A stretch of 57,930 nucleotides of DNA from Chlamydiales bacterium (lineage in GTDB: Bacteria; Chlamydiota; Chlamydiia; Chlamydiales; JARBTN01). Location: contig JARBTN010000001.1 in assembly GCA_029240195.1 (NCBI GenBank), forward strand, positions 1 through 57,930, in the 5' to 3' direction. Below, piece by piece: positions 52,551 through 57,759 of this stretch (position 1 is its first letter; the number at the start of each line of letters is the position of its first letter). The notes beneath the pieces are model-generated. The model was not told the origin of the DNA, did not search any database, and was given only the letters and a program-made list of their open reading frames with translations. The translations under genes were made by a program, and so were the position numbers.

Positions 52551-52583
52551 ATTGTTTTAAATAGCTGTGGGATATAAAATTTG
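52551..52583 (+). promoter_or_regulatory. Candidate promoter, copy 1 of a duplicated 33-nt block
   Basis: attgttttaaatagctgtgggatataaaatttg. TTGTTT (52552-57), a 17-nt spacer, then TAAAAT (52575-80). An identical block lies at 54642..54674. Confidence 0.4.
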
Positions 52584-52705
52584 TCAATTTTTTTTGAATT
52601 AAAATTAAAAATATGAGGGCCCTGACATGCAGGCGTTAGCGCTCATTTTGCTCATAAAAACAGCCTACTAGGCACTAGTTGCGATTCATAGGAGATCAAA
52701 AAAAC

Positions 52706-54520
52706 ATGGCAGCTCCCCATTCCTCTTCATTCTTTCCAGGAGGCGGCTACCCTATTCCTCAACCCTCCCCACCTCTTTTAGCGCCCAGCCCAGCCCCAGT
52801 TCAAGGCGCTTTGGTCAGCTGCATTGCGCAGCAGGCTCTCTCCACATCGGCTTCTGAGGAGTGCAAGGCAGAAAATGCAAAAGAGGCGCCGCGAAAAAAG
52901 GCGCGCCTTGAAAAAAGCCTCGCAACCTCTCCCTTAGATTGGCTGGCAGATGAAGTAGTCAACTGCATCTTTGACTTCCTCGATCCCGATAGCTTAAAGA
53001 GCATGGCTCAAACGTGCCGCCGCTGGCACTTGCACATGCAATCGAAGCCTTTACGCCCAGTCCTTACATTGCACCAAGGCTGCGCTCCATTCAACCCTGA
53101 AGAATTTGGCGCCTTTTTAGGCAGACTGGCAAGCTTCGATGATTCCTTTGGCATCGATTTTAAGGGCTGCCGGGAGCAATTGATTTTGCTTTTACAGCAT
53201 CCGGCCATGAGCCGCGTCAATTACCTAAAAATCAACTTGCCCGATATCGAAAATCATAGGGAAGTGCAGCGCGCTGAACAAGACTTGCTGCAAGTTGAAA
53301 GAGCGGGAAAAAGAGCGTTATCTGATCTAGACAGCCTTCCCTATCAGGCTGCATTGGAAGAGACTTTGCAACAAGTCGGCATCTTGAGAACCGAGATGAG
53401 AAAGAATGGCGTCAATGTCAATAAAGCGCAAAAGCATCTCTCTCTCTTAGCCCAAAGAGAGGAAGAGATGAATATGCTGAAAGAACAGTTAGGGCAGACG
53501 CAAGATGCTACGGTGTATGAGACCTTATCGCTTCGCATAAAAAATTGCCAAGGAGCGATAAAATATCATACAAAGAAGGCGAAAGTGCTGGAAAAAGGGC
53601 TGGAAAACCCTTCTCTTTTCCAACAGAGATATGCCAAGGTCGGCGCTTTTTTTACCGCTATGCCTGTCTTTGCAGCTTTGAAAGTGCTCGATGTCCGCTG
53701 TAGAGTTTTAGAACATCTGCGGATTTTAGAGCAGCTGATTAGAAATGCTCCTTACCTAGAGGCATTTAGAGTGCCCACCCCAGAGAAAATGAAAGACCCC
53801 GGTTTTAATGATGATGAGGACGAGAGCATCTACACTCCTCTTTTCCAGCCTTGCGCAGAATCGCTGACCTACCTCAACCTATCCGTGCCGCAGAACCAAT
53901 CCTCCCTATCGGGAAAGTGGTGTTCTATTTTAGGTGGAGCCTCCAACCTGCGTCACCTAGTCTTGGGTCGTGGAGCTGATGAAGAGGAGCTCACCAGCAT
54001 CCACCAGATTTACAGGCAAAATCCGTTAGAAATTTTATCTTTACATGACAGCGTCGGCGAGCCGTGCACCCTTGGCCTTTCCGAAGGGGAGCAAGAGCCC
54101 CTTTGCCCAAACTTAAAGAGGTTGCAGCTCTTCTATCCGAATGTCGACTTGGGAAGAATGGAAAATATTTTAGGTCATTGCCCCAATCTAAAAAGCTTGG
54201 CCATCATCACCCGCTTGCCAAATCCTTCCCCTGATGGGCTTACTCGTTTTAAAGAGGCATTGCAGTCGATGAGTGAACTTTTGAAGGAGCGGGGAGTGGT
54301 TCTTGAATGGTATCTTTATGTCTCCATCAGGAAAATAACAAAATTTGAGGCGCTGAGATCCCTCTGCCCAGATTTGGTTTTTGACCCTTTAGAGATAGAG
54401 CAAGCAGAAAAGCTGATCCATCAGCCCTATCAATTGCCGACCGATTCCAAAGTTCAAATGAAGGTGCTCAATAGCCGCTGCCCCACCCACAAAAAAAAGA
54501 TCATCAAAGTGAGTCTTTAA
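52706..54520 (+). CDS. Eukaryote-like F-box protein with C-terminal cysteine-type LRRs and an NLS-like basic patch
   Basis: ATG 52706 after AGGAG. PRKKARLEK, then F-box SPLDWLADEVVNCIFDFLDPDSLKSMAQTCRRWHLHM. C-terminal LCPNLKRLQLFYPNVDLGRMENILGHCPNLKSLAI. Confidence 0.75.
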   Translation: MAAPHSSSFFPGGGYPIPQPSPPLLAPSPAPVQGALVSCIAQQALSTSASEECKAENAKEAPRKKARLEKSLATSPLDWLADEVVNCIFDFLDPDSLKSMAQTCRRWHLHMQSKPLRPVLTLHQGCAPFNPEEFGAFLGRLASFDDSFGIDFKGCREQLILLLQHPAMSRVNYLKINLPDIENHREVQRAEQDLLQVERAGKRALSDLDSLPYQAALEETLQQVGILRTEMRKNGVNVNKAQKHLSLLAQREEEMNMLKEQLGQTQDATVYETLSLRIKNCQGAIKYHTKKAKVLEKGLENPSLFQQRYAKVGAFFTAMPVFAALKVLDVRCRVLEHLRILEQLIRNAPYLEAFRVPTPEKMKDPGFNDDEDESIYTPLFQPCAESLTYLNLSVPQNQSSLSGKWCSILGGASNLRHLVLGRGADEEELTSIHQIYRQNPLEILSLHDSVGEPCTLGLSEGEQEPLCPNLKRLQLFYPNVDLGRMENILGHCPNLKSLAIITRLPNPSPDGLTRFKEALQSMSELLKERGVVLEWYLYVSIRKITKFEALRSLCPDLVFDPLEIEQAEKLIHQPYQLPTDSKVQMKVLNSRCPTHKKKIIKVSL

Positions 54521-55915: not shown

Positions 55916-55962
55916 GCGCGGCCATTTCCCACTTTCAAATTCATAGGAGACCTTAAAAAAAC

Positions 55963-57759
55963 ATGGAAGCACCCAATCCCTCTTTCTCCTTAGCAAGAGG
56001 AGGCGACCCTTTTTTAAAGGCCCGCCTGGCCGAGACTCAAGGCCCGATGGCCAGCGATATTGCGCAGCAGGCCCTTTTTACCTTACACGATCGAGGCGAT
56101 GAAAAAGAGATTTTGCTAAAAAAAGCGCGCCTGGGGAAAAAAAATGCGGCCTCTCCTTTAGATGACTTGGCAGAGGAAATCGCCAACCGCATCTTTCAAT
56201 TCCTCGATCCCTATAGCTTAAAGCGCATGGCTCAAACGAGCCGCCGCTGGCACTGGCACATGCAATCGCAGCCTTTGCGTCCAGTCCTTACATTGCACCA
56301 AGGCTGTGCTCCATTCAACCCTCAACAATTTGCTGCTTTTTTAAACCGTTTGGCAAGCTTTAAAGCGCCTTTCGGCATCGATTTTAAGGGCTCTCGGGAG
56401 CAATGGGACCAGCTCTTGCATCACCCGGTCATGAACCAGGTCAATTACCTGAAAGTGAACCTGCTAGAGATTGAAAACCATACCGAGGTGCAGCGCATAG
56501 AGCAACATTTGTTGCAAGTGAGCTGCATTGCAAAAGGCGCACTATCTGATCTAAGCTGTCGTCCATATCAGGCTGTGATGGCAGATATTTTGCAGCAAGT
56601 CGGCGCTTTGAGCACCGAGTTGAGAAAAAATGGCTCTCGGATGCATAAAGTCCAAAAAAATCTCTCTCTTCTAGCCCAAAAAGAGGAGGAAATGCAAATG
56701 CTGCAAGCTCAAACTGCTGGGCTGAAGCATCGCGCGCAAAGAGACCTGCTATGGCAAATGAAAAACTGCCAAGAATCGATGGAACACTATGGAAAAAAAA
56801 CGCATGGATTAGAAAAAGGGCTGAAAGAGACGTTTCTTTTTCAGCGCAATTATGCCAAGATCGAAAGCCGGTTTTTAGCTGAGTTGCCAGTTTTTAGCGC
56901 CTTAAAAGTGCTCGATGTCCGCTGTAGGGCTTTAGAGCATCTGCAGATTTTAGAGCAGCTCATCAGACATGCTCCCCACCTAGAGGCCTTTAGAGTCCCT
57001 AACCTCAAAAAAATGGAAAGCCCTTGTTTTAACCAAAATGAGGCCAAACGCATATACGCGTCCCTCTTCCAGCTTTCTGCAAAATCTTTGGCCTACCTCA
57101 ATTTATCTCTGCCACAGAACCAATACCAGCTACCGCGAGAGTGGTGTTCTGTTTTAGTTGAAGTTTCCAACCTCCGTCAACTCATCTTTGGTCTAGGGGC
57201 TGTTGAAGAAGATCTCTCTTGCATTCATAAGCTTTACAGGCGAAACCCTCTCGAATTTTTATCTTTAAGTGAAGGCAGCGGCGATCCGTGCCCCCTTGAC
57301 CTTTCAGCAGAAGGGCAAGAGCCCCTTTGCCCAAACTTAAAGAGACTGCAGTTCTTTAATGCCACCTGGAATAGAGAAAAGATCAAGAATATCTTGGGCC
57401 ATTGCCCGAATTTAAACAGTCTGGTTGTTATCCATCGTTTGCTAACCCTCTCCAATGACGGGATGGTTCACTTCCAACAGACACTTGAGTGGATGAGTGA
57501 CGTTTTAATGAAGCGGGGAGTGGCCCTTGAATGCTACCTCTATGTCCCAATTGAGGAGATGGGAAAACTTGAAGAGCTGAGGTCCTTTTGCCCGGCATTG
57601 GTTTTTGAGCCCTTAGAGACGGAGACAGCGGAAAGGCTGATCCATTTGCCCTATCAGATGCCAAACGGCCAAGACGTTAAACTGATGGTGCGCAATAGCC
57701 TATGGGCCACCGACAAACAAAAGATCATCCAAGTCAGTTTGCAAGAGCATCAAGTTTAA
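55963..57759 (+). CDS. Eukaryote-like F-box/LRR protein, close paralogue of 52706..54520
   Basis: LLKKARLGKK, then SPLDDLAEEIANRIFQFLDPYSLKRMAQTSRRWHWHM. It contains long stretches near-identical to the first copy (PLRPVLTLHQGCAPFNP, FGIDFKG, VNYLK, LKVLDVRCR.LEHL.ILEQLIR.AP.LEAFRVP, EPLCPNLKRLQ). It shares the 5-prime UTR ttcataggaga..aaaaaaacatgg. Confidence 0.75.
   Translation: MEAPNPSFSLARGGDPFLKARLAETQGPMASDIAQQALFTLHDRGDEKEILLKKARLGKKNAASPLDDLAEEIANRIFQFLDPYSLKRMAQTSRRWHWHMQSQPLRPVLTLHQGCAPFNPQQFAAFLNRLASFKAPFGIDFKGSREQWDQLLHHPVMNQVNYLKVNLLEIENHTEVQRIEQHLLQVSCIAKGALSDLSCRPYQAVMADILQQVGALSTELRKNGSRMHKVQKNLSLLAQKEEEMQMLQAQTAGLKHRAQRDLLWQMKNCQESMEHYGKKTHGLEKGLKETFLFQRNYAKIESRFLAELPVFSALKVLDVRCRALEHLQILEQLIRHAPHLEAFRVPNLKKMESPCFNQNEAKRIYASLFQLSAKSLAYLNLSLPQNQYQLPREWCSVLVEVSNLRQLIFGLGAVEEDLSCIHKLYRRNPLEFLSLSEGSGDPCPLDLSAEGQEPLCPNLKRLQFFNATWNREKIKNILGHCPNLNSLVVIHRLLTLSNDGMVHFQQTLEWMSDVLMKRGVALECYLYVPIEEMGKLEELRSFCPALVFEPLETETAERLIHLPYQMPNGQDVKLMVRNSLWATDKQKIIQVSLQEHQV

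Follow-up and report, generated by a model that had tools for sequence, protein, structure and literature searches.

A Tandem Array of Predicted F-box/Leucine-Rich Repeat Genes and an F-box-Less Relative on a Contig from an Uncultured Chlamydiota Lineage

Introduction

F-box proteins are secreted by Ralstonia solanacearum (the GALA proteins) and by Legionella (AnkB, LegU1, and LicA); they bind SKP1 of the host and redirect its SCF (SKP1-CUL1-F-box) ubiquitin ligases. GALA proteins combine the F-box with leucine-rich repeats (LRRs), the repeats of AnkB are ankyrin repeats, and the Legionella effectors use the Dot/Icm system. In chlamydiae, the NEX1 family of Neochlamydia comprises 138 members, for which secretion by the type III system and mimicry of SCF receptors were proposed (Domman et al. 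2014, PMC4209131). The NEX1a families form tandem arrays, have ratios of nonsynonymous to synonymous divergence (dN/dS) of 0.29-0.63, and possess functional signals for type III secretion; their F-box was flagged as recombinant, with gene conversion and protein-level constraint left unseparated (Domman et al. 2014, PMC4209131).

Here, we describe a locus at the end of a contig assigned to a Chlamydiales bacterium (JARBTN010000001.1). The window, that is, the whole stretch of DNA analysed, is the entire 57,930-nt contig (G+C content, 48.7%). Three genes lie in tandem on its + strand, as do all features of the array given below: g1 (52706..54520, 604 residues), g2 (54815..55915, 366 residues), and g3 (55963..57759, 598 residues). 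All three open reading frames (ORFs) had been called by a first-pass annotation made from the sequence, and all were confirmed. The locus is a sequence-orphan addition to the known chlamydial tandem F-box/LRR expansions and is not a detectable NEX1 member. The reading that we favour, to which we assign a probability of about 0.6, is that of a three-member lineage-specific array in which g1 and g3 would encode secreted mimics of SCF receptors, a promoter would be shared, and the F-box tract would have undergone gene conversion. Taken alone, the FBXL-like architecture, the old g2, the old tandem duplication, the purifying selection, and the low-divergence F-box tract are highly probable.

Results and Discussion

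Architecture of the g1 and g3 Proteins

The proteins encoded by g1 and g3 aligned end-to-end with 57% amino acid identity over 595 residues (72-75% nucleotide identity). Both scored above the Pfam gathering cut-off with PF12937 (F-box-like; 26.2 bits for g1 and 26.0 bits for g3, cut-off 24.3) and with PF00646 (F-box; 24.5 and 23.9 bits, cut-off 20.5). By the scores of these curated profiles, g1 and g3 are F-box proteins, in agreement with the first-pass description of two paralogues with a clear F-box. The domain is encoded at 52940..53053 in g1 (residues 79-116) and at 56158-56277 in g3 (residues 66-105). The hydrophobic core positions and an RRW motif are present, and the conserved proline is replaced by alanine. 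Scans of NCBIfam and PHROGs returned no matches for g1, g2, or g3.

The g1 protein begins with a disordered Ser/Pro-rich N-terminus, followed by a KKARL patch (residues 62-70), the F-box (76-116), LRR-like beta/alpha repeats (117-185), a coiled-coil hairpin (186-300), more repeats, among them the cysteine-containing LRR pair at 463-504, and finally an alpha/beta region at the C-terminus. The conserved stretch directly after the F-box appears to be formed by the first LRRs. The cysteine-containing pair (PLCPNLKRLQL...HCPNLKSLAI, 25-residue period) is encoded at 54092..54217 in g1 and at 57316-57441 in g3. When the family profile was compared with the PDB, the top matches were only F-box/LRR proteins, namely TIR1, FBXL5, RAD7, FBXL2, COI1, SKP2, and FBXL17; the best E value was 1.6e-4, with the PLCPNLK...HCPxL pair at the centre of the alignment. 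A cysteine-containing LRR protein from a protist matched at E 2.9e-8. The C-terminal cysteine-type LRRs named in the first-pass annotation are backed by the PDB profile matches, but the Pfam LRR model stayed below its cut-off.

A first AlphaFold2 (AF2) model, built from two sequences, was unusable, with a predicted local distance difference test score (pLDDT) of 47.7. The model built from six family members reached a pLDDT of 61 and a predicted TM-score (pTM) of 0.53. It consists of alternating strand/helix repeats from residue 119 to approximately 560, interrupted by a long helical hairpin at residues 186-300. The best Foldseek matches of this model were TIR1, COI1, D3, and SKP2 (E 1e-4 to 1e-2, probability approximately 1). 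A solenoid folded like that of F-box/LRR receptors was thus recovered at modest confidence, given the pLDDT and the low TM-scores, and g1 and g3 are predicted with moderate confidence to consist of an F-box and an LRR solenoid.

KKARL patches are located 10-12 residues N-terminal to the F-box in both proteins, the N-termini of which are otherwise diverged (KKAR at residue 64 in g1 and residue 53 in g3; g2 has KRGR at residue 95). The nuclear localisation signal-like patches previously noted before each F-box are thus present. However, 15 of the 41 window proteins, including Ddl and other housekeeping enzymes, contain K[KR]x[KR], so that such a patch is not distinctive by itself, and a role of the KKARL patch as a nuclear localisation signal is suggestive only. 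The Ser/Pro-rich, predicted disordered N-termini of g1 and g3 are compatible with a type III secretion signal but do not demonstrate one.

Age of the Duplication and Divergence of the F-box Tract

Comparison of g1 with g3 by the Nei-Gojobori method gave a synonymous divergence (dS) of 0.755, a nonsynonymous divergence (dN) of 0.277, a dN/dS of 0.37, and a proportion of different synonymous sites (pS) of 0.476. The dS value, together with the 57% protein identity, indicates that the duplication is old. The family had been described as recently duplicated, which these values and the nucleotide identity contradict. Both copies are intact and under purifying selection, and the old tandem duplication carried the promoter-like region and the leader along.

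The long near-identical nucleotide stretches reported previously do exist, but they are confined to a tract of approximately 150 nt. This tract lies at 52946..53098 (g1 codons 81-131; partner in g3 at approximately 56170-56322) and covers the F-box and the next 15 residues. Its pS was 0.128, compared with approximately 0.5 elsewhere (Fisher p = 4e-5, for a window chosen post hoc), and the longest run free of synonymous change comprised 22 conserved degenerate codons (permutation p = 0.019). Amino acid replacements were frequent in the tract, with a dN/dS of 0.68-0.96. Since the similarity is found at synonymous sites, it points to later gene conversion rather than to constraint on the protein, and the F-box tract is probably a gene-conversion tract.

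Relatives of the Array Genes

When 1.84 billion representative proteins were searched exhaustively with HMMER, three weak relatives were detected, P0003, P0004, and P0005. Six proteins matched at E<=1e-3: g3, these three same-sample paralogues, and two proteins judged from sequence alone to be eukaryotic. The dispersed paralogues are encoded on separate contigs (L082, 10001-11689; L083, 3493-4686; L085, 16-1347), and no other relatives of g1, g2, and g3 could be detected. All three contigs come from the Joint Genome Institute (JGI) sample 3300042923, which also contains a twin of the window, and P0003 and P0004 were placed in one NCBI bin labelled 'Chlamydiales bacterium'. Their tetranucleotide composition correlated with that of the window at r = 0.89-0.93, similar to the two halves of the window with each other (0.92); other chlamydial rpoB loci correlated at 0.49-0.72, an imperfect control because these loci represent rpoB only. 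P0003-P0005 are therefore probably encoded in the same genome as the window.

A hidden Markov model (HMM) built from P0003-P0005 alone recovered g1 (E 2.4e-22), g3 (E 5e-19), and g2 (E 3.8e-10) and nothing else among the 306 window ORFs. The family is thus real and probably specific to this genome or lineage, and it comprises at least six genes, of which three form the tandem array and three are dispersed. P0005 has no F-box because its ORF runs off the contig end. Pattern scans found no relatives in the GTDB species genomes, the metagenome collection, or the viral contigs. Word-indexed searches with g1, the six-sequence alignment, and a trimmed alignment returned only window proteins and two generic cysteine-containing LRR proteins, probably because low-complexity words filled the candidate lists. 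The HMMER search detected no chlamydial relative outside the window's sample, NEX1 included, although no direct comparison with NEX1 sequences was made.

The dispersed paralogues have effector-like neighbours. A PP2C phosphatase gene lies 55 nt upstream of P0003, a 484-residue protein encoded upstream of P0004 matched YopT/Peptidase_C58 weakly, and an RHS/YD-shell protein of 1853 residues is also found among these neighbours. A 595-residue F-box and TPR protein is encoded on L085 (4605-6392, - strand; F-box-like, 25.5 bits, above the cut-off). Its gene is flanked by several insertion sequence (IS) transposase genes on a contig with 38.9% G+C, and its architecture resembles that of NEX2.

The Middle Gene Is an Old Paralogue

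The g2 protein consists of a disordered basic/acidic N-terminus of approximately 130 residues, a first conserved repeat module (approximately residues 135-219), and a cysteine-containing LRR pair (residues 283-327, encoded at 55661-55795). It gave no match to the Pfam F-box models at E<=1. A degenerate F-box was also considered and rejected, as the 80 residues before the first module aligned to the g1 and g3 F-boxes at the shuffle mean. The C-terminal PLCPNL...HCPxL repeat pair is common to g2 and g1/g3 (E 3e-6; hhalign E 2e-6), and the match of g2 to the HMM of the dispersed paralogues runs through two collinear modules. Identity of g2 was 23% to g1/g3 and 31% to P0003, indicating that g2 split off as early as the dispersed copies. 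We conclude that g2 is an old paralogue that keeps two conserved repeat modules. The first-pass annotation had correctly described a middle gene with the C-terminal region and without the F-box; its further proposal, that an expansion in progress was caught with one copy losing the F-box, does not agree with the low identity to g1/g3 and the lack of any F-box remnant.

Upstream Regions and Predicted Transcription Units

A 33-nt block, ATTGTTTTAAATAGCTGTGGGATATAAAATTTG, is present at 52551-52583 and at 54642-54674. The two copies are identical at 33 of 33 positions, as noted in the first-pass annotation; no third copy was found in the window at <=3 mismatches, and two matches never arose in 100 shuffles. 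The block is AT-rich and is located approximately 120-135 nt upstream of the g1 and g2 start codons. It lies within wider promoter-like regions (52539..52596 and 54632..54687) that are identical at 43 of 46 positions, and the similarity falls off on both sides. Each copy contains TTGTTT (52552-52557; 54643-54648) and TAAAAT (52575-52580; 54666-54671) separated by a 17-nt spacer. These hexamers agree with the consensus at three of six and five of six positions, respectively, a moderate match rather than the good one originally described. The main argument for a function of the block is its complete identity in a pair in which 48% of synonymous sites differ. A sigma-54 reading (GG...TTGC) was rejected by eye: the spacing was off by one and the -12 GC was GT in copy 1.

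No copy of the block was found upstream of the dispersed paralogues, even when eight substitutions were allowed; a -35-like string, TTGTTTT(T)AAA, recurred upstream of P0004 only and was not relied on. An exact-pattern scan of the metagenome collection gave no match to the block, not even from the JGI twin, indicating that the collection does not contain this sample.

Within the g1 leader (52597..52705), positions 52630-52660 form a conserved element, and positions 52684-52704, with AGGAG at 52690-52694, form a ribosome-binding segment. In the g2 leader (54688..54814), positions 54736-54766 matched the g1 element with 84% identity, and g2 has its own ribosome-binding site, AGGTG (54804-54808), 6 nt before the ATG. 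The spacer between g2 and g3 (55916..55962) is 47 nt long; its positions 55939-55959 matched the g1 ribosome-binding segment (AGGAG at 55945-55949). The segment TTCATAGGAGA...AAAAAAACATGG, which includes the ribosome-binding site, therefore precedes both F-box genes (52684-52727 and 55939-55984, 85% identity), and the earlier observation that both share an untranslated leader was borne out.

The region upstream of g1 is thus collinear with two separate pieces, 52539-52660 corresponding to 54632-54766 upstream of g2 and 52684-52727 corresponding to 55939-55984 upstream of g3. g2 occupies 54767-55938, splitting what is leader in the g1 unit, and g3 retains only the ribosome-binding-site part of the duplicated leader. 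A duplication of promoter plus gene, as first suggested, is correct in that upstream sequence was duplicated with the gene, but it was not the duplication of a simple unit, since the block precedes g1 and g2 and not g3. The arrangement could have arisen either by insertion of g2 into the leader of copy 2 or by deletion from copy 1, the 23-nt junction segments being too diverged to discriminate. The leaders matched no Rfam family and showed no RNA structure beyond that of shuffled sequences (g1 leader, z 0.03).

A terminator-like hairpin with an 11-bp stem followed by ATTTTT lies after g1 (54530..54559; -16.6 kcal/mol, z -3.3), and none of 200 shuffles folded as well. No terminator was found in the 47-nt interval between g2 and g3. 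A hairpin after g3 (57776..57813; 12-bp stem, T-run at 57831-57838) is a possible terminator (z -2.4; three of 200 shuffles folded as well). Given this distribution, the most economical reading is that of two predicted transcription units, P-g1-terminator and P-g2-g3-terminator, with the same predicted promoter. Similarity between the DNA following g3 and that preceding g1 would have suggested a third unit, but it was marginal (score 30, compared with a shuffle maximum of 28), and this reading was rejected.

Lineage and Integrity of the Contig

The rpoB gene of the window matched exclusively Chlamydiota genomes, at 72-82% identity (at most 82% to any species representative), and the closest matches were bins of uncultured Chlamydiae and Parachlamydiaceae. 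The window was absent from 185,579 GTDB species representatives. The organism belongs to an uncultured Chlamydiota lineage and may plausibly live in an amoeba host. In JGI sample 3300042923, one contig (L081) was 100% identical to window positions 50541-57930 (7390 nt) and extended 23 nt beyond. Since the junction recurs at 100% identity in this independent assembly, the linkage of the array to the remainder of the contig is confirmed. In tetranucleotide signature, the final 8 kb also correlated with the remaining contig (r = 0.89).

The array stops 171 nt short of the contig end (57760-57930), and the JGI assembly ends 23 nt later. As both assemblies break at nearly one place, a repeat, either a further paralogue or an IS element, may lie just beyond. 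In addition, P0003 recurs as an identical protein, flanked by the same genes, in a second independent sequencing run (Logan SRR35179801; contig L084), so that more than one data set contains the organism or a very close relative of it.

Comparison with Known Systems

The locus agrees with the chlamydial F-box/LRR expansions reported by Domman et al. (2014, PMC4209131), to which the first-pass annotation had pointed. Like the NEX1a families, it belongs to a chlamydial genome and encodes proteins with an N-terminal F-box, a conserved linker stretch, and C-terminal LRRs in a tandem array formed by duplication; the dN/dS of g1 and g3 falls inside the NEX1a range, and the putatively converted part is the F-box, which was flagged as recombinant in NEX1a. 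In contrast, the present family is known from at least six members rather than 138, it has a coiled-coil hairpin inside its repeat region, and the F-box-less g2 is apparently in an operon with the F-box member g3. Moreover, the synonymous sites of g1 and g3 point to conversion, and not to protein-level constraint, as the source of the F-box similarity.

The best profile and fold matches were eukaryotic FBXL receptors (SKP2, FBXL2/5/17, TIR1, COI1, and D3/MAX2), in which an F-box is likewise followed by a cysteine-containing LRR solenoid. Unlike these, g1 and g3 are bacterial genes with Shine-Dalgarno sites and no introns, and their products have a long disordered N-terminus; identity to the FBXL receptors was 13-20%. 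The GALA and Legionella F-box effectors show no detectable sequence relationship to g1 and g3, and their function was demonstrated, whereas that of g1 and g3 is inferred.

Proposed Function and Alternative Explanations

By analogy with the systems above, the g1 and g3 proteins are most likely secreted and act as mimics of host SCF substrate receptors. They would enter the host cell, probably via type III secretion, where the F-box would dock to host SKP1-CUL1 and the LRR domain would recruit host proteins for ubiquitination; the KKARL patch could direct them to the nucleus. g2, being unable to recruit SKP1, would probably bind its target without ubiquitinating it. A shared sigma-66/70-type promoter or operator would drive both units, with the block kept identical by functional constraint, and gene conversion would later have homogenised the F-box tract. 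In a more specific proposal, which we consider improbable, g2 would be a decoy or dominant-negative 'metaeffector' partner of the co-transcribed F-box effector that protects or times the substrates of g1 and g3, and the 33-nt promoter or operator, preserved unchanged by selection, would turn on the three genes jointly. If true, this would represent an effector/anti-effector module derived from one gene family in the Chlamydiota.

Several observations weigh against the receptor-mimic array as a whole. The conserved F-box proline is alanine in both g1 and g3 (LADE/LAEE instead of LPxE), the scores with PF24758 (LRR_At5g56370; 20.2 bits for g1 and 23.4 bits for g3) are under the cut-off of 27, TM-scores to F-box/LRR structures are low (0.17-0.25), and the F-box is poorly modelled by AF2 (pLDDT <50). 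The low-dS tract was picked post hoc, and two sequences preclude a formal test for gene conversion. The placement of the dispersed paralogues in the same genome is based on a shared sample, composition, and one label of a metagenome-assembled genome at NCBI rather than on an assembly. With regard to the promoter, only three of six -35 positions agree, and the site fell under the threshold of a consensus promoter scan. Conversion, rather than constraint on a functional site, could also have left the block identical.

This last point leads to the most serious alternative, that the block is the footprint of a short recent gene conversion between the upstream regions and not a constrained promoter or operator. 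A conversion-like tract does sit only 400 nt downstream, the block exists in just two copies with none upstream of the dispersed paralogues, and the weakness of the -35 and the silence of the consensus scan fit as well. Nevertheless, the position at approximately 120-135 nt from both starts, the 17-nt spacer, the five of six -10 positions, and the AT-richness weigh against this reading; the block is 100% identical compared with approximately 93% in the putative coding conversion tract; and the decay of similarity in the flanks is as expected around a constrained core. We therefore regard a conversion footprint as doubtful, yet as the likeliest of the alternatives. The proteins might also not be directed at a host at all, but carry a degenerate helical motif with an intrabacterial role or be drifting relics. 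The orphan status of the family, the replaced proline, and the dN/dS near 1 inside the F-box could be explained in this way. However, two independent Pfam F-box models score above the cut-off in both paralogues, LRRs come after the F-box, the order found in FBXL proteins, and both ORFs have remained intact at a dN/dS of 0.37 after a dS of 0.76. Furthermore, bacteria are not known to have SKP1 or cullin, and the contig or genome encodes other eukaryote-like proteins, namely F-box/WD40, F-box/TPR, and PP2C proteins. A function unrelated to the host is thus unlikely.

Still less probable is the explanation of the first-pass annotation, in which a promoter and its gene were duplicated recently and the middle copy is now shedding its F-box. 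The tandem, same-strand arrangement, the identical block, the near-identical stretches in the F-box region, and the C-terminal repeat pair common to g2 would all be expected from it. A pair of 57% identical proteins with a dS of 0.755 would not, nor would near-identity limited to approximately 150 nt, nor a g2 that has no F-box remnant and is nearer to the dispersed P0003 (31%) than to g1/g3 (23%). Finally, the array could be eukaryotic host DNA misassembled or misbinned onto a bacterial contig, as the eukaryote-like domain architecture and the location at the extreme contig end might imply. We consider this hardly credible: the JGI assembly repeats the junction at 100% identity over 7390 nt, the genes are intron-free with Shine-Dalgarno sites and hairpin terminators, the last 8 kb share the tetranucleotide signature of the contig (r = 0.89), and the same contig encodes rpoB, rpoC, and murein-synthesis genes.

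On the reading of g1 and g3 as receptor mimics, this family of at least six members adds to the known chlamydial F-box/LRR mimics of host ubiquitin-ligase receptors. The evolution of such families can also be studied here in a small and clean case, with an old pair under purifying selection and a block perfectly conserved at a dS of 0.76, and the F-box-less relative in the same predicted operon is a further evolutionary feature. The F-box similarity at synonymous sites bears on the question left open for NEX1a (Domman et al. 2014, PMC4209131). The block, the position of g2 within the leader, and the evidence for F-box conversion are worth recording but would not surprise a specialist. Current understanding is unchanged, and the main yield is a set of candidates for SKP1-binding and secretion assays.

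Other Genes on the Contig

A third F-box protein is encoded at 3998-5521 (- strand; F-box-like, 46.7 bits, E 2.7e-12, residues 45-87). Its F-box is followed by a WD40 beta-propeller, as in eukaryotic FBXW receptors, and no copy of the 33-nt block lies upstream of its gene. Immediately before the array and in the opposite orientation, 50389-52356 (-) encodes a helix-rich protein of 655 residues without a family; further orphans are a 749-residue ORF at 43237-45486 and ORFs at 26139-27839 and 29380-31152. The orphans of the contig, including the 655-residue protein, may be lineage-specific host-interaction proteins. A small ORF at 46806-47174 (-) matched DUF6531 (RHS-associated) at 20.3 bits, below the cut-off, and is a possible fragment of a gene for an RHS-type toxin.

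The stretches 33484-42507 and 47366-48949 encode an MraY-like glycosyltransferase 4, a MurD-like ligase, Ddl, a MurF-like ligase, and the rpoB/rpoC cluster. The ORFs beside rpoB/rpoC are presumably genes for ribosomal proteins and EF-Tu, with genes for tRNA-Thr, tRNA-Trp, and tRNA-Cys. A Cpn60-family gene is located at 23435-25030. The peptidoglycan-precursor, rpoB/rpoC, and Cpn60 genes are ordinary chlamydial core content. Near the array, 49710-50159 (-) encodes a stand-alone response-regulator receiver domain of 149 residues without an output domain.

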